From Escherichia phage phAPEC8: DNA of 64,000 nt. The DNA is taken from sequence record NC_020079.1, one strand, 5' to 3'. Positions 1 to 27,520 of this stretch are shown in pieces. The notes under the pieces are model-generated. The model saw nothing but the letters and a program-made list of their open reading frames with translations, ran no database searches and was not told the DNA's origin. Made by a program: the position numbers and the translations under genes. Numbering within the stretch: position 1 is the first letter of the stretch; every line of letters begins with the position of its first letter.

Positions 1-504
1 ATCGTGCAGCCAAAAAGATTCTACTCTACAAACACAAATACCGTTGATAATGAAATCTACACAGGCTTTATTATTTTCGCACACTTGTTGACTATAAACA
101 ACCCCTAAAGAGTCATAAAGTGATCTCACTGTTGCTACCATTTCATCTGTTTCGTCTTCCTGTGAAACAAAGAAAACGAATACAGACAAGTTATTAGCGA
201 AAGTATTGCTATTCTCTACTTCAACCGACTTACAAGGTAAAAAGGAGTAATATTTACCGTTAGGTATCAATTTCGCCTCAACCTGGTTAAGTATGCTTTG
301 AGATGGTTTTGTTACATAAAAAAGATTTTCTGTTGGGTTTTCAACATTACTCCTTACTATGCAACGAGTGGGGTTCGAAGGATCAAAAACATGATCGAAA
401 TCGACACACACAGGTAAGTTAACAACTTTAAACTTTTTGCTAAGAATGCTTACTGCTGTAAAAATCAAACCAGCATTTATTTTGCCAGTGAAAGTTGAAC
501 GCAT
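1..504 (-). CDS. hypothetical protein, 3' end truncated by window edge
   Basis: ATG at 504..502 preceded by GGAG RBS; hand translation shows no stop down to position 1 (MRSTFTGKINAGLIF...); not in the ORF track because it runs off the edge. Confidence 0.5.
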   Translation of the reverse strand, partial: MRSTFTGKINAGLIFTAVSILSKKFKVVNLPVCVDFDHVFDPSNPTRCIVRSNVENPTENLFYVTKPSQSILNQVEAKLIPNGKYYSFLPCKSVEVENSNTFANNLSVFVFFVSQEDETDEMVATVRSLYDSLGVVYSQQVCENNKACVDFIINGICVCRVESFWLHD

Positions 505-518
505 AACTACTCCTCGGA

Positions 519-713
519 TCATTCTACCAAAGAGAATTCCGCCTCTTCCAGGTAGATTACAGACCTTGTTGCATGATATTTAACGCTCCAGAAATTACCT
601 TCGCGCCGTAAAAGTATCTCATTCACATCAAGATTGCTTAGAAAAACCATATAACTTAAAGCTTGTTGACGCGTTGAGAATTGTTTCTCTAAAAGTTCTT
701 CTCCGCTCTGCAT
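519..713 (-). CDS. hypothetical protein (64 aa)
   Basis: ORF track; co-oriented with the leftward gene block. Confidence 0.4.
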   Translation of the reverse strand: MQSGEELLEKQFSTRQQALSYMVFLSNLDVNEILLRREGNFWSVKYHATRSVIYLEEAEFSLVE

Positions 714-758
714 AATCCCTCCTTAAAATACTCCCTCCGAAAAGGGAGTATAAGTATA

Positions 759-962
759 TCACGTAGTTGTTATGTTGTCTTCTTGGATTCTAGAATCCAC
801 TTCTGCAAACATATCTTCTGCACTGTAATTATTTCCAGTCCAGCGTGATAAAAGGATAGCACCAATCTCTTTTGCATGAGATTCGGACTCCGCATAAACG
901 TTAGTCCCAGTGTCACCTTTTTTCTTTTCATGTGCATAAATGCAGTAATAATTGTAAGCCAT
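759..962 (-). CDS. hypothetical protein (67 aa)
   Basis: ORF track; stop/start abuts next gene. Confidence 0.4.
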   Translation of the reverse strand: MAYNYYCIYAHEKKKGDTGTNVYAESESHAKEIGAILLSRWTGNNYSAEDMFAEVDSRIQEDNITTT

Positions 963-1198
963 TAATCTTCCCAGTCATTGCCCTCGGTAGAGTGAACTAA
1001 AGCTCGCACGATACCACCGTAATCTACTGCCTGATTTGCAGCATGTTCGGCATAAACTTCAATGGCTTTTTTGAAGAAAAGAGCAGTAGCTGCTTCAATA
1101 TTATCCATTTCGCCATCTACGTCAGTAGAAAGTGAAAGGTTGAGGCTTTCATCTACTTCATCAAAATCAATAGCCACTGTCATAATTAGTTTACCCAT
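962..1198 (-). CDS. hypothetical acidic protein (78 aa)
   Basis: ORF track; tight packing with neighbours. Confidence 0.4.
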   Translation of the reverse strand: MGKLIMTVAIDFDEVDESLNLSLSTDVDGEMDNIEAATALFFKKAIEVYAEHAANQAVDYGGIVRALVHSTEGNDWED

Positions 1199-1210
1199 AG
1201 TTCACACTCC

Positions 1211-1720
1211 TTAAACAAAATAAAATGGTTGAGAGAGGCCCAAACGATTCTTTGGGTCGTATACATACCAAGCGTATGCTGTCTTATCTGTTCCACCTGC
1301 AACAAACGAAGGCCGTTCTGAAAGGACTATAAGGTTTGTTGGTGGATTCTTTTGATGGAACTCTCGTCGTTTCTTTGACTCCAAGAAGCCCAACCGAAGA
1401 AGATAAATACAAACATCCGCCTCTTTTAAGCTCTTTTCCAAGAACTCCATTGCTAACTTAAATGGAGGATTTGTGATTATAATATCGGGACGATTTTCCC
1501 ATTTATGACTAAAATAATCTTTACCTTCTTCAAGTTCGCAATATTCTGAACCTTCAGGAAAATGGCGATAAATCGCTTCAGCTTCACCTCTACAAGGTTC
1601 TGCAAAAACCCAACCTTCTTCCTTTAGATTTTTGAAATCTATAACACTAAACAAACTATTGATTGCTTTTTGCGGTGTCGGATAATAATCGCTCGTTGGG
1701 CGATCATAATCTAATGCCAT
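1211..1720 (-). CDS. small phage Dam-like DNA N6-adenine methyltransferase
   Basis: DYYPTP near N-terminus and catalytic-type motif DIIITNPPF; about 169 aa as in small phage Dam-family enzymes. Confidence 0.55.
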   Translation of the reverse strand: MALDYDRPTSDYYPTPQKAINSLFSVIDFKNLKEEGWVFAEPCRGEAEAIYRHFPEGSEYCELEEGKDYFSHKWENRPDIIITNPPFKLAMEFLEKSLKEADVCIYLLRLGFLESKKRREFHQKNPPTNLIVLSERPSFVAGGTDKTAYAWYVYDPKNRLGLSQPFYFV

Positions 1721-2138
1721 CTAAAATCTCCTCTTTTGTAATATTATCCAACTCTTTAAAGGATGAAATCTCGTTTAATAATCCTATTTGATCAGCTTCT
1801 AGAGGATAAGTGTTTTTATCTGTTTTTCTAGACAGGATATCTTCAACAAACTTATCAATAGCCAAAGAAGAATCATAAAATTTTAAAAGTTGGTAATCCA
1901 TAGGAGATATTTTGTCATCTCTTAGAAATATTTCTAACATGTTTTCAGGAGTATCGTGGTTTAGTTTATGTTCACCAAAAATATTAACTTCGTAAACATC
2001 TTTGCCAAACCAACGTTTCTTCTTTTCAACAGTATAGGTTTTTGCCACCAGACCATCTAAACAGTTTCTTGCCCTCTTACATGTTTGACGGTAAGAGTGG
2101 ATAGCGCCTTCAACAAACTTAGCAGGAACTTGTAACAT
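1704..2138 (-). CDS. hypothetical protein (144 aa)
   Basis: ORF track. Confidence 0.4.
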   Translation of the reverse strand: MLQVPAKFVEGAIHSYRQTCKRARNCLDGLVAKTYTVEKKKRWFGKDVYEVNIFGEHKLNHDTPENMLEIFLRDDKISPMDYQLLKFYDSSLAIDKFVEDILSRKTDKNTYPLEADQIGLLNEISSFKELDNITKEEILDGIRL

Positions 2139-2183
2139 TATTAATCTCCTATGTTTAAGAAATGCCCCCGAAGGGGCAGTTTG

Positions 2184-2876
2184 TTAAATAGCGGTTCCTT
2201 CGAAATCCGCCACATTTACGAGATTAATATTTTCAGATTTAGAAGTCAAGTTGTTTTCTGCAACAGATTTTTCTTCAGTATCCGCCTCGTTACCTGCCAC
2301 GTTACGAGGTTCTTCTTCACCGTAGGGATTACCGAATTTCAAAAGATTGATCAATTCTTCTTTGGAGAAGTTTTCTAAATCATCGTCTGTTAATTCAATA
2401 ATCTCGTCTTGTTCTTCAATAAATGTTTCACCACCAGAAAAAGCATCTCGCTTTTTAGCTACTTCCATAGCCTGTTCTGGTGTTGCCCCTGCATCAAGAG
2501 CAGCTAAAGCAAAGTCTGACCCACTTCCTACCGCATAATATTCTTCATCAATCGGATATGCACGTGTTGGGTTGTTACCTTCGTGCAGGAAAATACGTCC
2601 GTCTGGATGAACAACAAGTGCAATAAACTCTTCATCTTCTTTATCTGGATCAGAGTGAATCATCAAACCAGGGACAGCATCACGTGCTGCTTCGCACTGT
2701 AGATTTTGTTCAAACCATTGAAAGAAAGAAAGCACGGAGGTCAGACGACCAGCACCACCTACAAGGTAATCTCCAATTTTTCGGACCTTTTTGAAATTAA
2801 TAGAATCTACACGTCCACCAAAAGTTACCTTACCGTCACTCAAAATCTTATTTTTGGTTGCAATAATTGTCGTCAC
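2184..2876 (-). CDS. HslV-like N-terminal-threonine peptidase (proteasome family) with acidic C-terminal tail
   Basis: N-terminus MTTIIA (Thr right after Met), KVRKI, GGAGRLTS, AVGSGS motifs align with E. coli HslV (TTIVSV, KVRRL, AGGTADAF, AIGSGG). Confidence 0.55.
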   Translation of the reverse strand: MTTIIATKNKILSDGKVTFGGRVDSINFKKVRKIGDYLVGGAGRLTSVLSFFQWFEQNLQCEAARDAVPGLMIHSDPDKEDEEFIALVVHPDGRIFLHEGNNPTRAYPIDEEYYAVGSGSDFALAALDAGATPEQAMEVAKKRDAFSGGETFIEEQDEIIELTDDDLENFSKEELINLLKFGNPYGEEEPRNVAGNEADTEEKSVAENNLTSKSENINLVNVADFEGTAI

Positions 2877-3379
2877 TATTCTTCCTCCTCTGTTAATGTT
2901 TTAAGAACCGCTTTCCCGCCATTCACATATTTGCAGATGTATTCTATCGCACGTAGTGTCTCTTTGTCAACAAAAATTTGATCAGACGTTGCGAGCGGGT
3001 TATTAAGAAGATCACTGCAATCACGAACAAGCAGTGCTTTCTTATTAAACAAATTACTTAAGAACAGTAACTTCGCCTCTTCTTCTGTTATGTGCAGAAG
3101 GCTAGGATCGGAGCCAGCTATTCCTATTATACAATCAAACAAGCTTTCTTTACTATCAGAAAGTTCTTGAAAATGGTTTAAAAGCCAATCTTCTCCTAGA
3201 CACCAACATTTAAACATTTCCAGTTTATCTCGGAGGGTCATATTCTCTAAAGTAAGAGCAATCTCTTTTTCAATATGGTTTACACAAATTTGACGAAATT
3301 CGTTAGGTTTTACGAGTCCCGTTTGATAGCACTCATCTATACCGCTTCTTCCGATAGCTATTGTTGCTACACCCATCAA
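2876..3379 (-). CDS. hypothetical protein (167 aa)
   Basis: ORF track. Confidence 0.4.
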   Translation of the reverse strand: MMGVATIAIGRSGIDECYQTGLVKPNEFRQICVNHIEKEIALTLENMTLRDKLEMFKCWCLGEDWLLNHFQELSDSKESLFDCIIGIAGSDPSLLHITEEEAKLLFLSNLFNKKALLVRDCSDLLNNPLATSDQIFVDKETLRAIEYICKYVNGGKAVLKTLTEEEE

Positions 3380-3411
3380 TCCTCCTTATAAATGGCTTCC
3401 CTGCCATGTTA

Positions 3412-4221
3412 TTAAATAAACACTTCAGTAATCAGTTTAGACAAACGTCCACGTTTATTATCGTCCGTTGTCAGTTCAACGTATCCAATAAAATCTACAA
3501 TTGGCTCACGAACACCTTCTTCATTTTCTGGATATAAAAGTTCCAAAATTTGATGCAGACCATTGCTACGTTTTTTAATTGCATATGTCTGGCGAACATC
3601 GCCTAATACAATAACATGCGTATTAATACCTGCACGTTCAATAAGAAGTTTAAGTGTTTCTGTTGACATAAGTTGTGCTTCGTCAATAATGACGATTGTA
3701 TTATCCAGGGTGGCCCCCAACAAATAGTTAGGAATATTCAATTCGATCTTACCTGATCCAATATCGTTTTCCAATTTGTTGGCTGTCATGAATTGCTGGA
3801 AAATACGTTTTGTAGATTCATAGTGTGCTGCTAGTTTATCTGTTTTATCCCCAGACAAGAAACCAATCTGGTCATCTCCTACTTCAGTAGGGTTCTTGAT
3901 AAAAAGTAGTTTACGGAAGTCTCCTGAACGAAGCATCTGCAAAGCTTTCCATAAAGCAACAGAGGTTTTACCAGTCCCTGCCGGAGCATTTACAACAGTC
4001 AGATCATTCCAGATCATGCTTTGAACAATCTTATTTTGGTCCCCTTCAGGCATAAATTCATCTAAACGGTAATCGTCATTACCTACCGCTTTTGCTGCAT
4101 AACGGCTTTCAATCTTTGCTGAATTAGCCAATTTCTGCCGTTGTGTTTTAGCTGCGGTTTTATTTCCCATAGTAGCACTCCTTTTAGAAGGGGCCGAAGC
4201 CCCTTTATTAGTTGTAAGCAT
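3412..4221 (-). CDS. phoH: PhoH-like ATPase
   Basis: Walker A NAPAGTGKTS and PhoH signature IGFLSGDKTDK. Confidence 0.8.
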   Translation of the reverse strand: MLTTNKGASAPSKRSATMGNKTAAKTQRQKLANSAKIESRYAAKAVGNDDYRLDEFMPEGDQNKIVQSMIWNDLTVVNAPAGTGKTSVALWKALQMLRSGDFRKLLFIKNPTEVGDDQIGFLSGDKTDKLAAHYESTKRIFQQFMTANKLENDIGSGKIELNIPNYLLGATLDNTIVIIDEAQLMSTETLKLLIERAGINTHVIVLGDVRQTYAIKKRSNGLHQILELLYPENEEGVREPIVDFIGYVELTTDDNKRGRLSKLITEVFI

Positions 4222-4715: not shown

Positions 4716-4865
4716 CTATTCGTCGTCTCCTACTCCGTGATCCAACTCGTTAAACAACAGATGTTCTGGAGAAGTTTCACGTTTTGGTTTCGTTTTCTTT
4801 ATGTTGGACTTCAGCTCATTTGCCAAAGCACGAGAAAAGATCTTACGTTTCTGTTTACTTTTCAT
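4716..4865 (-). CDS. small basic hypothetical protein (49 aa)
   Basis: Hand-translated sub-threshold ORF with GGAG RBS; MKSKQKRKIFSRALANELK... Confidence 0.3.
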   Translation of the reverse strand: MKSKQKRKIFSRALANELKSNIKKTKPKRETSPEHLLFNELDHGVGDDE

Positions 4866-4870
4866 AATTG

Positions 4871-5131
4871 TTACTCCGCAATTTGAGCCATGAGATCACG
4901 CAGTTCGGTAAAACCGCCTACGTATGTTACCTCCCCGTTCACTTCAGACAGAATTTGTGGAAATGTGCGTGGAGGAACTCCGGTAAGATCAACAACTGTT
5001 TTAGTCATTGATTCTAAATCATAGTCTTGATCAAGACTTAAATATTCAAACTGTTTATTGCGCATGGTTAATAGTTGTTTTGACATTTCACAAAATTGAC
5101 AGTTAGGTTTACCAAAAATTACAAATTCCAT
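4871..5131 (-). CDS. glutaredoxin-like protein (NrdC/NrdH type)
   Basis: CQFC redox motif near N-terminus, TFPQI and GGF motifs; adjacent to the nrd genes. Confidence 0.65.
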   Translation of the reverse strand: MEFVIFGKPNCQFCEMSKQLLTMRNKQFEYLSLDQDYDLESMTKTVVDLTGVPPRTFPQILSEVNGEVTYVGGFTELRDLMAQIAE

Positions 5132-5973
5132 TACCTCTCCTTATTAAGTAATACTGCTAAAGACTGTTCAATACCTTTATTTAAATCTGATTTTGTAAGA
5201 TAGTGACTGGTTACTAGTTGTGACTTCATCGGACGTGCTGCTGGAGCATTATAGGTTGAAGCTGATACCGCCGATATCTTAACAGGTTCTGGCATCTGTG
5301 TCAAGATCTTTTCCGCAAACTCCGCCCAAGAAATAAGATGGCTTCCTGCAAAATGGTAAGTCTTAACAGACCTTGACCAACCTGTTCTTAATACTTCAAA
5401 AATAGCTTCTGCTAAATCTGGAGCATATGTTGGACAAGAGAACTGATCAGCAACAATAATAAAATCACGTTGTCCATCATTATAGCGAGACAACATGGTT
5501 TTTAGAAAGTTATTTCCAAATTCGCTATATACCGAGGCTGTTCGAATAATATATGCATTTGGGTTAACTCCTCGCACCATTTTTTCACCAAGTTCTTTCG
5601 TATACCCATAATTGTTTATTGGGTTAGGTGTAGTATCTTCAAAAATAGGATGAGAATAATTAAAAATATAGTCTGTAGAAATATGCACAAAATCAATTTT
5701 AAGTTTGCTGCACACTGCCGCAATATTTGCAGGTCCATACGCATTAACAGCCAAAGCAGTAGCAAAATCATGTTCTGCTTTATCTACAGCCGTATAAGCG
5801 GCGCAATTAATAACACCATCTACATAATCTTCAATAATAGCGTTTCGCACAGCTTCAAAATTTGTAATATCTACACGTTCTTTAGGATAAATTAAAGATA
5901 CATTTGAAGGAGCCACTTTACGTAAAGCTTGTCCCAGTTGTCCATTACCGCCCAATACCAGATATGTTAGCAT
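5131..5973 (-). CDS. rmlD: dTDP-4-dehydrorhamnose reductase
   Basis: GGNGQLG Rossmann motif, NCAAYTAVDKAE, STDYIF, YGYTK motifs matching RmlD. Confidence 0.85.
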   Translation of the reverse strand: MLTYLVLGGNGQLGQALRKVAPSNVSLIYPKERVDITNFEAVRNAIIEDYVDGVINCAAYTAVDKAEHDFATALAVNAYGPANIAAVCSKLKIDFVHISTDYIFNYSHPIFEDTTPNPINNYGYTKELGEKMVRGVNPNAYIIRTASVYSEFGNNFLKTMLSRYNDGQRDFIIVADQFSCPTYAPDLAEAIFEVLRTGWSRSVKTYHFAGSHLISWAEFAEKILTQMPEPVKISAVSASTYNAPAARPMKSQLVTSHYLTKSDLNKGIEQSLAVLLNKER

Positions 5974-6533
5974 ACACCCTCGCTACGTAACTGTTGAAAA
6001 GATTTAGCCATTGCATCTTTTGTTGATAGAATAGGTTTAAAACCTTCGTCAAAAATCATATCGAAGCCCCAATCGATCCCTATATCAGGATCATCCCAAC
6101 GTAAACTTTGTTCACTAGAAGGGTCGTATGGAGTTGTGCATTTGTATTCAAAGATAGCATCCATACTCAAAACTATAAAACCATGAGCCAAACCAGGCGG
6201 AAGCCAAAACTGCGTATGGTGTCGTGCACGAAGAACAACACCGTCCCAAGCACCGTAAGTTGGACTATCTTTACGTAAATCTACAGCGAAATCCAATACT
6301 TCCCCACTTACACAACGAACTAGCTTACCTTGCGGGTTATTTGTTTGAAAGTGCATTCCTCGCAAAACACCGAAGTTTGATTTAGACATGTTATCTTGAA
6401 CGAAAGTTTGTCTACCAATAATATCTTCGTATTTTTGTTCATTATATGTTTCTAGAAAGAAACCACGATCATCTTTATAAACGTCTGGTTTGATAATTAC
6501 CGCACCTTCAATTTTTGTTTTTTCTACTTTCAT
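5967..6533 (-). CDS. rmlC: dTDP-4-dehydrorhamnose 3,5-epimerase
   Basis: Start moved to the internal ATG at 6533 ([26 protein letters not shown]..), giving an ATGA overlap with rmlA; the track ORF extends 40 codons further into rmlA. Confidence 0.8.
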
Positions 6534-7408
6534 TTTCTCTCCGCTAATTTGAGTAGGTATTGCCCGTACTCTGTTTTCTTCAGTGAGTTTCCATGATACA
6601 CCAAAGTCTCTAAAGAAATCCACCCTTTTTTGAAAGCAATTTCTTCCAAGCACGCAATCTTCAATCCTTGACAGTTCTCAATAGTCTGCACGAATTGACC
6701 AGCTTCCATCAGACTGGCGTGTGTTCCTGTGTCAAGCCAAGTAAATCCTCGTCCGAGAACTTCCACTTGTAACTTCCTGTCTTCTAGGTAGCTGCGATTG
6801 ATATCAGTGATCTCCAGTTCTCCACGCGCGGAAGGGGTTACTTCTAATGCACGTTGAATAACAGAGTTATCATAGAAATACAAACCTGTGACAGCATAAT
6901 CTGATTTAGGATTTTCAGGTTTCTCTTCAATAGAAATAGCTTGACGATTACTCCCAAATTCAACCACACCGAATCGTTCAGGATCTTTCACCAAATACCC
7001 GAAAATACAAGCTCCGCCCCAAACATCTACCATCTCACTGGCGTTAATCAGTAGTTTACCAAAGCTTTGTCCGAAGAATAGGTTGTCACCTAAAATAAGA
7101 GCAACAGAGTCTTCTCCGATAAAATCTTTACCTATGATGAAAGCTTCCGCAAGACCTCGTGGCTCGGATTGGATTGCGTAAGTGAGTTTTATCCCAAACA
7201 TAGACCCATCTCCGAGAAGATACTCAAAGTCTTCCTGATCACCTGGTGTGGTGATGATTAAAATATCCTTAATGTCAGCCAACATCAATACCGATAAAGG
7301 GTAGTAGATCATGGGTTTGTCATACACAGGGAGCAATTGCTTGCTCACACTGCGTGTTACCGGATGAAGGCGGGTTCCACTTCCTCCCGCCAAAATAATA
7401 CCTTTCAT
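6530..7408 (-). CDS. rmlA: glucose-1-phosphate thymidylyltransferase
   Basis: [19 protein letters not shown]-terminal nucleotidyltransferase signature; 292 aa. Confidence 0.9.
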
Positions 7409-7416
7409 AACCCTCC

Positions 7417-8409
7417 TTAAATTTTCTCACTCCACCATTGAGGGTTGTTTAAGTACCATTCAATCGTTGAGTAGAGATCTTGTTCAAATGTAGAGTTTGC
7501 ACTCCAGCCCAGTTCAGACTCTATCTTAGAAGGATTGATTTCATAACGCAAGTCATGTCCTTTACGATCTTCAACAAAAGTTATCAAGTTGGAAGAAGGG
7601 TAGGTTACTGCTTCTGGATGTACAGTATCCATATAGTCACAAACCATATAGATGATCTCCATATTGGTTTTGGGATTACGTGTTCCAACATTATACGTTT
7701 GACCTGGTTCTCCACCTGTTGCCACTTGAAGAATAGCTCGCGCATGATCCTCAACAAAAAGCCAGTCTCGCACCTGGTCGCCTTTACCATACACCGGAAT
7801 CTCTTTATTCGTCAAGATACTTGTGATGATTTTTGGGATCAGCTTTTCTGGATGTTGATAAGGCCCAAAGTTATTGGAGCAGTTGGTTATCACAACAGGC
7901 AAATCGTAGGTGCGGTGCCAAGCTTTCACAAGATGGTCAGATGCTGCCTTAGACGCACTGTACGGGCTTGAAGGGGCATAAGCTGTCTCTTCGGTAAAGG
8001 GAACGCCAGAGTCTGCCATATCGCCGTACACTTCGTCTGTGGAGACGTGTACGAACATCTTCAGTTTATTTTTTGGGAGGAGCCTTGCAGCTTCCAATAA
8101 ATTGTATGTACCGATAATATTGGAGTCGATGAAAACTCGTGGATTCTTGATAGAATTATCCACATGACTTTCTGCCGCTAAGTGAATGATGAAGTCAGGA
8201 TTGCACTCTACTACTAAACTTTTGACCTGGGTTTCGTTTGCCAAATCTGTCATGCTTAGTTTAACGTGAGTGATATCGCCTACATTCTCAATATCTGCTG
8301 CATAGCCCATCTTATCAACGACAAAAACTTCGTTATTAGGATCTTGACAAAGAGAGCGCACCACGGCACTCCCAATAAAACCAAGACCACCTGTTACCAG
8401 ATAGCGCAT
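7417..8409 (-). CDS. rmlB: dTDP-glucose 4,6-dehydratase
   Basis: [24 protein letters not shown] and YSASK motifs of SDR dehydratases; 330 aa. Confidence 0.9.
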
Positions 8410-8418
8410 CAGTTCTCC

Positions 8419-8745
8419 TTACCAGACATGTTGAGAAATAATAGTTTCCGTTTTAATGTTATATTTTTCAAGTAGCTTTGCATAGGCTTCTTTTGCATTC
8501 TCATTCAATTGCTCAAGATCTACAGCTATGCTTCCCTCTCCGCCTTCTAAATCAAGGCCATATATGCAATAAGACTCATCCGCATCGTAGAAAGGAGAGA
8601 TGCGGCTTAAGTCCAGACCTTCTTGTAAGAACCAGTTAAAATCTCCATCAAATTCTTCTTCAATTCTAGGATCTTCTCCTACAGCCTCTTCCCATTTATT
8701 AAAAGGTGCACCCTGTAACATACGCCATTCAATATCAATACCCAT
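8419..8745 (-). CDS. hypothetical acidic protein (108 aa)
   Basis: ORF track. Confidence 0.4.
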   Translation of the reverse strand: MGIDIEWRMLQGAPFNKWEEAVGEDPRIEEEFDGDFNWFLQEGLDLSRISPFYDADESYCIYGLDLEGGEGSIAVDLEQLNENAKEAYAKLLEKYNIKTETIISQHVW

Positions 8746-8920
8746 TTTTCATCTCCTCCTCTTCTTGAGCAGCTTTAATAATTGCTTCATAAATATCGTA
8801 AGCAATGCCTCCACAACATCTAGCTTCGAAAGCTATTGCTTCTGCAATGTGATCTGTTAATTCTCGTGGAATACGGACATACTCTTTTTCATTCTCCATC
8901 TTCCACCTCTTCTTTTTCAA
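8735..8920 (-). CDS. hypothetical protein; true start probably the internal ATG (MENEKEY..)
   Basis: ORF track (TTG-started); internal ATG overlaps the stop of the upstream zinc-ribbon ORF. Confidence 0.35.
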   Translation of the reverse strand: MKKKRWKMENEKEYVRIPRELTDHIAEAIAFEARCCGGIAYDIYEAIIKAAQEEEEMKNGY

Positions 8921-9035
8921 AGACTACTACTCGTCCCTCACCATGACAATTCAGGCAAGGAAATGTTACCATAATTTCCACTTCCATCTGTCCAGTCCCA
9001 CCGCACACAGGACAAAAAATAAGTTTTTCAGCCAT
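8889..9035 (-). CDS. small zinc-ribbon protein (48 aa)
   Basis: Hand-translated: MAEKLIFCPVCGG...CLNCHGEG; two CxxC pairs; start overlaps the upstream stop (TAATG). Confidence 0.35.
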   Translation of the reverse strand: MAEKLIFCPVCGGTGQMEVEIMVTFPCLNCHGEGRVVVFEKEEVEDGE

Positions 9036-15364: not shown

Positions 15365-15940
15365 CTAACTTTCAATTTCCTGCAATAGGATTTTGACTAT
15401 TTGTTTGCGGCGTTTCGCTACTGTGCTTTCAGGTTCTATTTTACGCTTCTTCAACCAAGCTTTATCTTTCTTAGCTCTACACAAAGCTATTGCTTCTTTT
15501 TCAGCTTTCGCTTCTTCAAAAGATATACCTTGTTTATCTGCATAAGCAAGAATAGAGTTGCACAATTTACAAACCATTCGCAAATCTTCTTCTTTCACAT
15601 AGATCAAACGGAAAACAAAAAGGGGAATATCCTCAAAACATTGAAGTTGTTTTGCTGCGTGAATATGATCCACTTGGAAGTCTTTCATTCCTCCTCTGTG
15701 TCCACATATTTCGCACTCACAATTCCAAACTTGTTTTGGTTTTCCAGTTTTCTTGTCTATCATCACATTGCCGTCTTTATCTACACGATCAACTTTAAAA
15801 CGCCTTGCATTGATAACCTTAATTTTATTAGGGTGTCTCATCCATGCTTTTCTAAAACATCCCCTAAGATAAGTATAAAATTCAGCTTGTGTTTTCCAGG
15901 GTGTTCCTTCACCCCACATTATTTTTGGTTCACCTGCCAA
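15365..15940 (-). CDS. HNH endonuclease (free-standing, homing-type)
   Basis: CECEICGH...VDHIHA and downstream CKLCNS motifs typical of HNH zinc-finger nucleases. Confidence 0.5.
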   Translation of the reverse strand: MAGEPKIMWGEGTPWKTQAEFYTYLRGCFRKAWMRHPNKIKVINARRFKVDRVDKDGNVMIDKKTGKPKQVWNCECEICGHRGGMKDFQVDHIHAAKQLQCFEDIPLFVFRLIYVKEEDLRMVCKLCNSILAYADKQGISFEEAKAEKEAIALCRAKKDKAWLKKRKIEPESTVAKRRKQIVKILLQEIES

Positions 15941-16765: not shown

Positions 16766-16815
16766 TAATATAAAATTTTTGTCAATAAAAAAGGGAGCAA
16801 TAAGCTCCCTGATTA

Positions 16816-17775
16816 TTAGATTCCAATAATAGTTGCTGCTCGTTTATCCTTGGATCTGGTGTTTGCTCTACTACGTGACAAACCGCCGCAAGATTCACAA
16901 CGAATGATATCGAAAGAACTTACCGCAGTGTGGTATTGTTTACCAGTAACAACGTGAACGTGATCACTGCCACAACGAGAACAACGGACCTTCTCATCTG
17001 GGTAATAAGCGGATAAGTTAGGATGCTGTGGAATCCACGGAAGGATTTTCATATACAAATCACGGAGTGAAACAACATCACCATCATTGTAAATCTGCAT
17101 ACGTTCAAAAGCATCACGATCACCTTCACAACATGCTTTCCATAAAGGGAATCCCTCGTTATCCAGTTTTTCACTTTCTGTTTCGAAATATGCTCCCATT
17201 TCTTTAAGGGAGTTGGAAGGAAGTGCAAATTGTTTCTTAGCTGCCTTCAATGTATCAACAACTACATAATTAGAAGGAGGAGCCATATCGTGATATGCAA
17301 ATCGTTGGTTAATGTATGCACGGTCAAACTTATACCCGTTGTGTGCCACAACTACATCTGCCTCATTCAGAAGGTTCCAAAGATCTTGGCAAAGCTCCCA
17401 ATCATCTGTATGATCAATATCAAAAAGAGGATAAGAAGACAAGTTCTTACCTTCCACTTCACCAGTATACAGGTCAGCAGAAGAGTAAGATAACAAATAA
17501 CCCCTACGAATTACTTGATCTGGAGAAATGAAGGCTTTGAATCGACGGAAAGTATATGCAATCTCTGGTGCAGTTTCAACATCAATAATTTTAATAACGG
17601 GTTGTTTCTTTTTAACTAGCTCTTGTTTACTTGCTCCAAATCGTGCAAGGAAATCGTTCACTGTGCTTTTTCTTGTTGGACTACCTAAAACAATTGCTGC
17701 AATATTACGAGAAGACATACCCTCTGCACTCATACTAAGGATATCTGCTTTCTGCTCTTCTGTTAATCTGCTCAC
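16816..17775 (-). CDS. DEDD-type 3'-5' exonuclease with N-terminal HTH and C-terminal zinc ribbon
   Basis: Exo motifs IDVETAP (DxE), VAHNGYKFD, YNDGD; N-terminal HTH-like region; C-terminal CSRCGS...CESCGG. Confidence 0.5.
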   Translation of the reverse strand: MSRLTEEQKADILSMSAEGMSSRNIAAIVLGSPTRKSTVNDFLARFGASKQELVKKKQPVIKIIDVETAPEIAYTFRRFKAFISPDQVIRRGYLLSYSSADLYTGEVEGKNLSSYPLFDIDHTDDWELCQDLWNLLNEADVVVAHNGYKFDRAYINQRFAYHDMAPPSNYVVVDTLKAAKKQFALPSNSLKEMGAYFETESEKLDNEGFPLWKACCEGDRDAFERMQIYNDGDVVSLRDLYMKILPWIPQHPNLSAYYPDEKVRCSRCGSDHVHVVTGKQYHTAVSSFDIIRCESCGGLSRSRANTRSKDKRAATIIGI

Positions 17776-18890
17776 TCTGCCTCCTGTTGTGAGATGTATG
17801 ACTGAAGCATACTCTCAAATGTTGTATCGTCATTATCCCAGCGTTTCATGTATACCAACTGGAAAATTGTTTCTATCCATTCATCTGTTGTCATATGGAC
17901 TTCTTCTCCATCCCAAGAAGTAAAATTAACACCATCTGGGAACCATGAGTAGTAAGTATCTTTAACTGTTTGGAAAAGTTCTGCTTGAGTTTTACAAGCT
18001 GAAAGAAGATTAAAACAAGTAATATCTCCGAACTTAATATCAAAATCTTGATAAGGTCGGATACTATCTGTTTTATCTCCCATTAGCATCTGATATGCTA
18101 ACCAGTAACTGCCCCAACCTTTAACTTCTTTCTTTTTACCTTTATCTACGATCCATATATCGCCAATAGACTCGTCAATAAGAATTATATCTGGATTTTT
18201 AAATACTCCATCCTCTTTGTAGAAATTAAAAAGGATACTAGGAGTATGTAAACTATCTTTATCTATAGATACTACGATATAAGAAAATTTACCCGTCCTT
18301 TTATAATCTTTATAACCTTGGAAACCATACTTCTCTAACTCATCATCAGCTTCTATTACAGTAACAACATCACCATTGTGGAACTCCACAAGATAATCTT
18401 TGGTTTCTGAAAGCTGAAGTGGTTTGATATCTAATCGTTCAGATTTATATTCTACAGGCATTTTGAAGGCGTGTCTGAAAGTTTTTCCTACGCCAATAAC
18501 TCCGCAATATTTTTCTAAACGTAGATGTTTTAGAATACCTAAGACTTTTGTTTTAGCTGCTTGGAAGGTGTGTCCGATATCTTCTGGCGGGTATTGCTTA
18601 TCAATGATTTCGAACTCTTCCTTTGTGAAGGGACGTTTGTTTTTGGAGGCTCTTTCTGCATTTGTATCTCCTAGCCAACCTCCAATTTTAGTCTTGCTTT
18701 TACCCCAAAACTCTGTCTTATTTTTAAATTCCTTTTGAGCACCTGAAGGGATGTGCTTCGCAATGATTGTTCTTTTCTCTAATGCAGACGCTGCTTGGAA
18801 AGCGATCTGATCATAATCAATTGCAGCTATTGTTTCTTCATTGACATATAAATGAAGATCTTCAGGTTTAATTAAAATATAACCGCTAAT
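17772..18890 (-). CDS. RNase H / flap endonuclease (T4 rnh-like 5'-3' exonuclease); start codon non-canonical or unresolved
   Basis: Motifs AAIDYDQIAFQAAS, IEADDE, VSIDKDSLH, LMGDKTDSIRP match T4 RNase H in order; frame is open 146 codons upstream of the first ATG (18461) with no in-frame ATG/GTG/TTG; candidate ATT at 18890..18888 after a GGGGGA run. Confidence 0.55.
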   Translation of the reverse strand: MSGYILIKPEDLHLYVNEETIAAIDYDQIAFQAASALEKRTIIAKHIPSGAQKEFKNKTEFWGKSKTKIGGWLGDTNAERASKNKRPFTKEEFEIIDKQYPPEDIGHTFQAAKTKVLGILKHLRLEKYCGVIGVGKTFRHAFKMPVEYKSERLDIKPLQLSETKDYLVEFHNGDVVTVIEADDELEKYGFQGYKDYKRTGKFSYIVVSIDKDSLHTPSILFNFYKEDGVFKNPDIILIDESIGDIWIVDKGKKKEVKGWGSYWLAYQMLMGDKTDSIRPYQDFDIKFGDITCFNLLSACKTQAELFQTVKDTYYSWFPDGVNFTSWDGEEVHMTTDEWIETIFQLVYMKRWDNDDTTFESMLQSYISQQEAE

Positions 18891-18902
18891 ATTTCCCCCT
18901 AG

Positions 18903-19112
18903 TTATTCATCGTCATCCTCTGTTGAGAATGTTTTAGTATACGGACATTGACGACTTTTCGGGATTGCTATAACTTCATCTTGGTTAGCGTTAGAATAGT
19001 AGCAATATTTTGTATTGCCATTAACTTCAGAATCAGACAAGATTAAAGTAATTTGACCTGCTGCTACTGTGAAACTAAAAGCTAAAAGAACGACTGTCAG
19101 AATCTTTTTCAT
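18903..19112 (-). CDS. small secreted or lipoprotein-like protein (69 aa)
   Basis: AGGAGG RBS; hydrophobic signal-like N-terminus MKKILTVVLLAFSFTVAAG; two Cys. Confidence 0.45.
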   Translation of the reverse strand: MKKILTVVLLAFSFTVAAGQITLILSDSEVNGNTKYCYYSNANQDEVIAIPKSRQCPYTKTFSTEDDDE

Positions 19113-19184
19113 AACGCCTCCTAAAAAGCCTACCTCATTAAGTAGGTAGGCATAATATCATAACTAATCCCGCAAGTCAAGAAC

Positions 19185-27142: not shown

Positions 27143-27217
27143 GGCCCTGTAGCTCAATGGGAGAGCTGTCGGCTCATAACCGATAGGTAGCTGGATCGAA
27201 ACCAGCCAGGGCCACCA
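27143..27217 (+). tRNA. tRNA-Met (anticodon CAT)
   Basis: Hand-folded cloverleaf: acceptor GGCCCTG/CAGGGCC, anticodon loop CTCATAA, encoded CCA; T-loop ATCGAAA. Confidence 0.7.
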
Positions 27218-27219
27218 AC

Positions 27220-27294
27220 GTCTTTATGGTGTAATGGATAGCACAGGAGTCTTCTAAACTCTTAGTCAAGGTTCGATTCCTTGTAAAGACACCA
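27220..27294 (+). tRNA. tRNA-Arg (anticodon TCT)
   Basis: Acceptor GTCTTTA/TAAAGAC, anticodon loop CTTCTAA, T-arm CAAGG-TTCGATT-CCTTG, CCA. Confidence 0.7.
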
Positions 27295-27490
27295 GAACAT
27301 TTTAACATGAATTAGCTCAAGTGATTTGAACCCACTACTGATCATGGTGGCAGAGAATGAGGCAAGTATGTCAGACATTATAAACAAAGGCCACGGTTAC
27401 ATTAGAAGACATAAATGCTCGAAGAGCACCGTTCGTGGAGAACGGGGGTTGGTGGAGTCACCATTCATGGTAAAATGTTTTAAAAAACTA

Positions 27491-27520
27491 TTGACAACTA
27501 ACATTATTTTATGTTAGATT
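27491..27520 (+). promoter_or_regulatory. sigma70-like promoter inside the tRNA operon
   Basis: CTATTGACA, 17-nt spacer, TTAGAT/TAGATT -10; a few nt upstream of tRNA-Ser. Confidence 0.45.

Follow-up and report, generated by a model that had tools for sequence, protein, structure and literature searches.

A predicted stand-alone DEDDy 3'-to-5' exonuclease with helix-turn-helix and zinc ribbon modules in Escherichia phage phAPEC8

By virtue of its annotation, one gene of Escherichia phage phAPEC8 poses a simple question: does its product edit for a DNA polymerase, or is it a nuclease in its own right? The gene lies in a stretch of 64,000 nucleotides (nt) from sequence record NC_020079.1, referred to here as the window, and all coordinates are positions in that window unless another locus is named. 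Its counterpart in the closely related phage nieznany, gp024, is annotated as "DNA polymerase exonuclease subunit", while elsewhere relatives are entered as "putative exonuclease", "DNA polymerase" or "DNA polymerase III". An earlier note on this DNA had described the product as a DEDD exonuclease fused to an N-terminal helix-turn-helix (HTH) and a C-terminal zinc ribbon, and had proposed host-DNA degradation, replication proofreading or anti-defence as possible roles. Taken together, the motifs of the protein (hereafter the DEDD protein) very probably identify it as a stand-alone DEDDy 3'-to-5' exonuclease.

The open reading frame (ORF) is found on the minus strand, from a GTG at 17775 to a TAA at 16816-16818, and its ends agree exactly with those in the earlier note, which named no strand; the plus-strand translation of 16816-17775 is riddled with stops. 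The predicted protein begins with MSRLTEEQK, which lines up with the start of its homologs, in which M1 is nearly invariant. All three of the exonuclease motifs first read from the letters (IDVETAP, VAHNGYKFD and YNDGD) were found again in the translation. In an alignment of 65 homologs with 28-81% identity to the phAPEC8 protein, the catalytic residues recur in 64 or 65 sequences. Poor conservation of the catalytic Asp and Glu residues had been named as the observation that would speak against a nuclease; D65, E67 and D151 are present in 65/65 homologs and D233 in 64/65. Because the third motif is Y-x3-D, with Tyr instead of His, the enzyme is assigned to the DEDDy subtype.

Profile and fold comparisons lead in the same direction. 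In Pfam the DEDD protein matches RNase_H_2 (PF13482; E=9e-10, residues 107-243), with DNA_pol_B_exo1 sub-threshold. Among the 65 homologs RNase_H_2 is matched by 55, RNase_T by 36, DNA_pol_B_exo1 by 19, DNA_pol_B_exo2 by 16 and DNA_pol_A_exo1 by 13. Structure prediction, which the earlier note had recommended, bears out its architecture: the model contains an RNase H-like alpha/beta fold, a three-helix N-terminus and a three-strand C-terminal ribbon. In the fold search, polymerase proofreading domains come closest, and the catalytic core is most like those of family B and T7-type DNA polymerases. A direct sequence search of the PDB gave marginal matches with E of at least 0.3, to a chain deposited as exodeoxyribonuclease III and to Pol III epsilon. 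A Pol III epsilon (DnaQ) equivalog was rejected, the NCBIfam epsilon models scoring 18-22 bits (best 22.4 against a cut-off of 196; cut-offs 196-245).

Comparison with characterized exonucleases places the protein more precisely. Identity to the exonuclease domains of family B polymerases (Pyrobaculum and Pyrococcus PolB, Pol epsilon and E. coli Pol II) and of T7 gp5 is 15-19%; unlike these, the phAPEC8 protein is free-standing, without a polymerase domain, and has an HTH and a zinc ribbon that are not in the PolB or T7 gp5 exonuclease domains. E. coli Pol III epsilon is a DEDDh enzyme (His in Exo III, H-x4-D), whereas the phAPEC8 protein is DEDDy (Y229-x3-D233). The C-terminal segment of epsilon binds the alpha subunit; the C-terminus of the phAPEC8 protein is instead a predicted zinc ribbon. 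The closest functional analogy is with T4 DexA and E. coli ExoI and ExoX, free-standing DEDDh 3'-5' DNA exonucleases that serve breakdown, repair or recombination and not proofreading. ExoI and ExoX came up in the fold comparison, yet DexA, ExoI and ExoX are without HTH or zinc ribbon, and their sequence relationship to the phAPEC8 protein is undetectable beyond the superfamily.

The flanking modules set the protein apart from these enzymes and were examined separately (Table 1). Because the phAPEC8 protein alone has no Pfam HTH match at its N-terminus, even at E<=1, support for this module is drawn from homologs, from a profile of the N-terminal sub-alignment and from the model. The model forms a three-helix bundle over residues 6-47, and the family consensus of this region, GxSSRxIA...KSTVND, is HTH-like. 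Among the 65 homologs, Pfam HTH matches comprise HTH_23, HTH_SB and HTH_38 (seven each) and HTH_7 (four). Against the PDB, the N-terminal profile gives weak HTH matches (E 0.004 to ~1), the best being a designed DNA-binding HTH protein (E=0.004), followed by the Sleeping Beauty PAI subdomain, gamma-delta resolvase, NarL and DeoR-type regulators. Collectively these observations agree with the HTH claimed for the N-terminus. The Lys-rich linker behind it is probably flexible, since the confidence of the model, given as the predicted local distance difference test (pLDDT), is lowest there.

At the other end of the protein, the zinc ribbon is modelled with three beta strands (residues 273-282, 287-293 and 299-305; pLDDT ~95), and a profile of the C-terminal segment matches the zinc ribbons of RNA polymerase subunit P/Rpo12 (RpoP), RPA12, S27e, L37ae and Spt4, matches that are driven partly by the CxxC pattern itself. 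With each of the four cysteines kept in nearly every homolog, the sequence and the model both favor the ribbon described earlier. The HTH is absent or vestigial in ~14/65 homologs, proteins of 245-270 amino acids that begin with the exonuclease domain or a short way ahead of it (a few residues). Because these homologs do without it while each Cys is conserved in 64/65, the exonuclease and the zinc ribbon form the conserved core of the family, with the HTH as a common accessory.

Table 1. Features of the DEDD gene, its product and the adjoining gene and signals in the phAPEC8 window (res, residues of the DEDD protein).
Feature	Position	Strand	Details
Coding sequence, HTH-DEDDy exonuclease-zinc ribbon protein (predicted)	16816..17775	-	319 amino acids, GTG start, TAA stop; PHROG 403; = nieznany gp024
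N-terminal HTH module (predicted), res 1-47	17635..17775	-	helices 6-17, 22-30, 33-47; model + homologs
Lys-rich linker, res 48-60	17596..17634	-	lowest model confidence, pLDDT ~75
DEDDy 3'-5' exonuclease domain (predicted), res 61-257	17005..17595	-	RNase H-like fold
Exo I IDVETAP, res 64-70	17566..17586	-	D65, E67 invariant 65/65
Exo II VAHNGYKFD, res 143-151	17323..17349	-	N146 63/65, F150 62/65, D151 65/65
Exo III YNDGD, res 229-233	17077..17091	-	Y229 65/65, D233 64/65
Cys4 zinc ribbon (predicted), res 262-305	16861..16992	-	CSRC C265/C268 + CESC C293/C296, each Cys 64/65
Basic C-terminal tail TRSKDKRAATIIGI	16819..16860	-	family consensus RxRxNxxxK
Shine-Dalgarno AGGAGG	17780..17785	-	4 nt upstream of DEDD gene GTG
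PHROG 107 5'-3' exonuclease, ~372 amino acids	17772..18890	-	probable ATT start at 18890; coupled to DEDD gene
Intrinsic-terminator-like hairpin AGGGAGC-TTATT-GCTCCCT + T-run	16792..16810	-	GC-rich, 6 nt past DEDD gene stop
Near-consensus sigma-70 promoter TTGACA-17-TATACT	16785-16757	-	11/12 match; directly beyond hairpin, for next genes

The family to which the DEDD protein belongs is widespread. Over residues 5-318 the protein aligns with positions 3-319 of the 321-position profile of PHROG 403, "DNA polymerase exonuclease subunit", a full-length match (E=7.4e-107). Of 50,697 phage records searched by tblastn, 1,586 gave a match, among them phages of Mycobacterium (609), Escherichia (216), Pseudomonas (214) and Vibrio (95); with these matches and the Pfam one, the gene is well above what chance would give. 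An exhaustive hidden Markov model search of 1.84 billion representatives, counted as clusters of 50% identity, returned 3,064 at E<=1e-30 and 4,895 at E<=1e-10. The phAPEC8-like relatives are E. coli myoviruses of ~145-155 kb (Phapecoctavirus, Stephanstirmvirinae); over the ~8 kb around the DEDD gene, identity reaches 99.9% to vB_EcoM_ASO2A and 99.2% to the RefSeq genomes of nieznany and tuntematon. In a viral structure library, the best match is a "YprB RNase H-like" protein of the phiKMV-like phage LKA1, over the full length (TMq 0.77). A published classification of PF13482 placed a phage-only cluster, F.23, beside the PolB exonuclease clusters; on bioinformatic grounds only, the PF13482 families were regarded as uncharacterized, presumed 3'-5' exonucleases (Majorek et al. 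2014, PMC3985635).

Set against PHROG 403 and cluster F.23, as represented by nieznany gp024 and the LKA1 protein, the phAPEC8 protein has the three modules, the DEDDy and Cys4 residues and the position in a replication and recombination gene block in common, and no substantial differences were seen. Within this very large phage family, which databases annotate already, it is typical, and the identification is correct but ordinary. Of experimental results, those nearest to the family come from mycobacteriophages Girr, Hammy and Adephagia, whose "DnaQ-like exonucleases" are toxic to M. smegmatis in overexpression screens (PMC11075535, PMC11373665); these proteins are candidate members only, cluster F phages being among the distant tblastn matches. 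Three family representatives (P0137, P0155 and P0204) are 571-587 amino acids long and match the family profile in two separated stretches, a pattern suggesting that the exonuclease gene of some phages has been interrupted by an inserted element, possibly an intein or homing endonuclease.

The family name implies a polymerase partner. On that account, the DEDD protein would be a trans-acting proofreading subunit, bound to the family A polymerase of the phage or to the primer terminus, where it would edit misincorporations; we consider this role unlikely. The account has in its favor the PHROG 403 and RefSeq names, the proofreading domains at the top of the fold search, and the presence, in 10 of 28 clusters, of a PolA gene no more than 8 kb upstream. 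It also draws on two metagenomic loci, L078 and L085, in which a T7-like polymerase of ~455-475 amino acids, ending ...WWGCH and without exonuclease motifs, lies 1.6-1.8 kb upstream of a full HTH-DEDDy-zinc ribbon member (4831-6198 and 7977-8930, respectively, in L078). Such loci may represent a natural split of polymerase and proofreader and may be the origin of the name. They were flagged by a regular-expression screen for exonuclease motifs in neighboring polymerases, a crude screen in which many ORFs were cut by locus ends.

In the lineage of phAPEC8, the polymerase itself points the other way. No polymerase gene is present in the 64-kb window, so the evidence comes from nieznany, whose gp205 (348-3917 of locus L002) is a T7 gp5-like family A polymerase of 1,189 amino acids. 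Its N-terminal segments WDIEANG, VAHNGINYD and YYCIYD align with SDIEAN, FHNGHKYD and YNVQD of T7 gp5, the motifs of the T7 exonuclease site, whose catalytic residues include D5, E7 and D65. Because gp205 has all of the DEDDy exonuclease residues of T7 gp5, this phage lineage already encodes proofreading in cis. Since the lineage polymerase keeps this site intact, the DEDD protein is probably not the main proofreader, and the dedicated proofreading proposed in the earlier note becomes unlikely in this phage. Moreover, gp205 and gp024 are at least 55 kb apart in nieznany and lie in different transcription units. Several neighboring polymerases at other loci also keep ExoI and ExoII motifs, the DEDD protein has putative DNA-binding modules of its own, and distant family members occur in temperate mycobacteriophages. 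To our knowledge, those phages carry no polymerase.

It follows from the intact proofreading site of the lineage polymerase that there is no justification here for calling the protein a "DNA polymerase exonuclease subunit"; that name over-interprets the function, and "stand-alone DEDDy 3'-5' exonuclease" is better. The DEDD protein was also considered as a recent duplicate of the phage polymerase exonuclease domain. This origin was rejected, because only Exo II is shared with the polymerase N-terminus in a BLASTP comparison (E=0.17). As a separate observation, gp205 contains an insert of ~300 amino acids (residues ~635-950) between polymerase motifs, with a weak match to the PI-PkoII endonuclease, that is probably an intein, and an HNH endonuclease gene directly follows the polymerase gene.

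If not a polymerase, which proteins does the exonuclease work with? The most immediate candidate is encoded by the gene directly upstream. The GTG of the DEDD gene (17775-17773) overlaps the TGA stop (17774-17772) of that gene in a GTGA, an overlap of the type typical of translational coupling, and the identical 4-nt overlap is annotated in Justusliebigvirus VEcB. Because a hairpin with a T-run and then a promoter stand directly after its stop, the DEDD gene is probably the last of its transcription unit.

The upstream partner appears in public records as a protein of 229 amino acids (17772-18461), leaving an apparent gap of 440 nt (18462-18902), although its frame is open up to 18902. When extended, the partner aligns with a 379-residue rV5-like homolog over 375 amino acids (37% identity, E=5e-83), and its PHROG 107 match improves from 6e-43 as annotated to 1.4e-55. 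The 147 codons upstream of the annotated start include no ATG, GTG or TTG, and the sole start fitting the N-terminus of the homolog is an ATT at 18890, located 3 nt after GGGGGA. Both the ATT and the peptide that follows it, SGYILI, are kept in VEcB behind AGGAGG, where an internal GTG has been annotated; the rV5-like homolog uses a TTG. Consequently, the partner is truncated in the public annotation, and its real start is probably the conserved non-canonical ATT.

The partner is a predicted 5'-3' exonuclease. Neither its truncated nor its full-length form gave a significant Pfam match or PDB sequence match, and the identification rests on PHROG 107, to which the phiKMV-type "DNA exonuclease" MR12 gp28 also belongs, and on the flap endonuclease (FEN)-like motifs SIDKD and GDKTDS. 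MR12 gp28 is presumably the counterpart of gp21 of Burkholderia phage JG068. In published work, JG068 gp21 matches the T5 5'-exonuclease with an HHpred probability of 100% (PMC3765740).

The pairing of the two exonucleases extends well beyond phAPEC8. Phage isim, which is rV5-like, encodes in succession the PHROG 107 exonuclease, a small protein, a RuvC-like resolvase, an Endo VII-like nuclease, a small ORF and the family member, while in the phiKMV-like phage MR12 the polymerase is followed, after other genes, by the PHROG 107 exonuclease, Endo VII and the family member. Among 80 diverse IMG/VR loci, collected with a profile from a 12-sequence alignment, a PHROG 107-type gene occurs upstream on the same strand within ~3 kb in 60 and downstream or on the opposite strand in none. 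The same upstream order is present in 18 of the 28 evaluable DEDD-protein clusters (60% identity). These PHROG 107 counts are lower bounds, as phmmer was run with three query sequences only. In phAPEC8, genes for RdgC, a MazG/PRA-PH-like nucleoside triphosphate (NTP) pyrophosphohydrolase and an ATP-dependent DNA ligase lie further upstream in the same orientation, and genes for ThyX and the large and small subunits of ribonucleotide reductase lie downstream.

With this context in mind, we hold at about even confidence that the DEDD protein is an accessory 3'-end-processing DNA exonuclease of a replication and recombination module. The reading frame, the conserved motifs, the fold and modules, the family and the coupling and order of the genes are what the analysis shows; substrate, polarity, metal dependence and biological role we infer as follows. 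D65, E67, D151 and D233 would hold two divalent metal ions, with Y229 positioning the attacking water, so that nucleotides would be removed singly from a free DNA 3' end. The flexibly linked HTH and the zinc ribbon, the latter modelled with high confidence, may give the enzyme its own grip on DNA or on a partner protein. Made from one mRNA with the FEN-like 5'-3' exonuclease by translational coupling, the DEDD protein would work beside this neighbor, RdgC and DNA ligase. Most likely it trims the intermediates of replication and recombination at their 3' ends, flaps or overhangs, and it may treat broken host DNA in the same way.

Several points weigh against this assignment. Biochemical or genetic characterization of any PHROG 403-type member was not found in the literature, and gene order is circumstantial evidence for function. 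The polymerase on which much of the argument turns belongs to the close relative nieznany and not to the phAPEC8 window. Since some phages pair a family member with an exonuclease-less polymerase, as in L078 and L085, proofreading stays plausible for part of the family. Finally, the choice of DNA over RNA as the likely substrate is drawn solely from the nearest structural relatives.

A second role that might compete with 3'-end processing is the breakdown of host DNA for nucleotide salvage. Here the DEDD protein and the 5'-3' exonuclease, joined in relatives by the resolvase or endonuclease, would reduce the nicked host chromosome to mononucleotides. T7 gp3 and gp6 and T4 DexA are precedents for such breakdown. 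The surrounding block is rich in nucleotide metabolism, as the genes for ThyX, both ribonucleotide reductase subunits and the MazG-like NTP pyrophosphohydrolase illustrate, and the phiKMV-like trio of endonuclease, 5'-3' exonuclease and 3'-5' exonuclease mirrors the T7 class II nuclease set. Against these parallels, direct evidence of host-DNA degradation by these phages is not available, and an HTH of the sequence-reading type would be unnecessary for bulk degradation. The family is also found in mycobacteriophage clusters F and K, and temperate phages are not expected to destroy the host chromosome; members of cluster K have been described as temperate (PMC11075535, PMC11373665). Host-DNA degradation, as raised in the earlier note, thus fits the gene context but is an improbable primary role.

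A more speculative view, to which we give a rather low probability, would cast the family as a portable module for editing 3' ends, one that binds DNA unaided and acts in trans with any polymerase or nuclease at hand. Such a module could serve as a proofreader for an exonuclease-less PolA, as in L078 and L085, as a back-up of, or an interference with, host replisomes in polymerase-less phages, and, beside the 5'-3' exonuclease, as one of two paired nucleases of opposite polarity in Phapecoctavirus, where its dose would be set by coupling to a weak ATT start. Least likely is an anti-defence or RNA-directed nuclease that destroys retron multicopy single-stranded DNA, oligonucleotide second messengers or guide RNAs, or that acts in the processing of RNA primers or tRNAs: in structure and in sequence the protein is nearest to polymerase DNA-editing domains and not to RNases, the gene lies within a replication and recombination block and not in an early anti-defence island, and the anti-defence suggestion found no backing in the literature or in PADLOC, whose library, covering defence and not anti-defence, matched neither the DEDD protein nor its partner.

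Other features of the window and of related genomes were recorded alongside the exonuclease pair. Between rdgC and the pair lies an ORF of 69 amino acids (18903-19112, minus strand) with a signal-peptide-like N-terminus (MKKILTVVLLAFSFTVAAGQ...), whose homolog in isim is named 'putative membrane protein'. Ahead of this ORF, at 19128-19180, a promoter-like TTGACT-17-TATTAT extended by a TG stands immediately upstream of a terminator-like hairpin, which is an odd order. Free-standing HNH genes are scattered in the replication and nucleotide-metabolism block, namely gp006, gp028 and gp034 in nieznany, the last between the two ribonucleotide reductase subunit genes, and 15365-15940 (minus strand) in the window; their distribution suggests active homing-endonuclease traffic. 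Further away, a cluster of 11 tRNA genes at 27143-29148 on the plus strand (Met x2, Arg, Ser, Tyr, Asn, Thr, Gly, Gln, Pro and Ile) separates the divergent minus-strand early and metabolic block from a block of long plus-strand ORFs. At ~5131-8409 on the minus strand, four ORFs have as counterparts a dTDP-rhamnose set annotated in the relative, namely glucose-1-phosphate thymidylyltransferase, dTDP-glucose 4,6-dehydratase, 3,5-epimerase and reductase; this phage-borne sugar-nucleotide pathway is already annotated in phAPEC8-like phages.

The importance of the DEDD protein itself is limited, in that an existing annotation is mainly confirmed and residue- and fold-level detail is added. For the public records, the probable ATT start of the PHROG 107 partner is an annotation fix, and the propagated subunit name needs to be read as a stand-alone DEDDy 3'-5' exonuclease in this lineage. 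With ~3,000 clusters at 50% identity, the family offers a reasonable and low-risk target for characterization.
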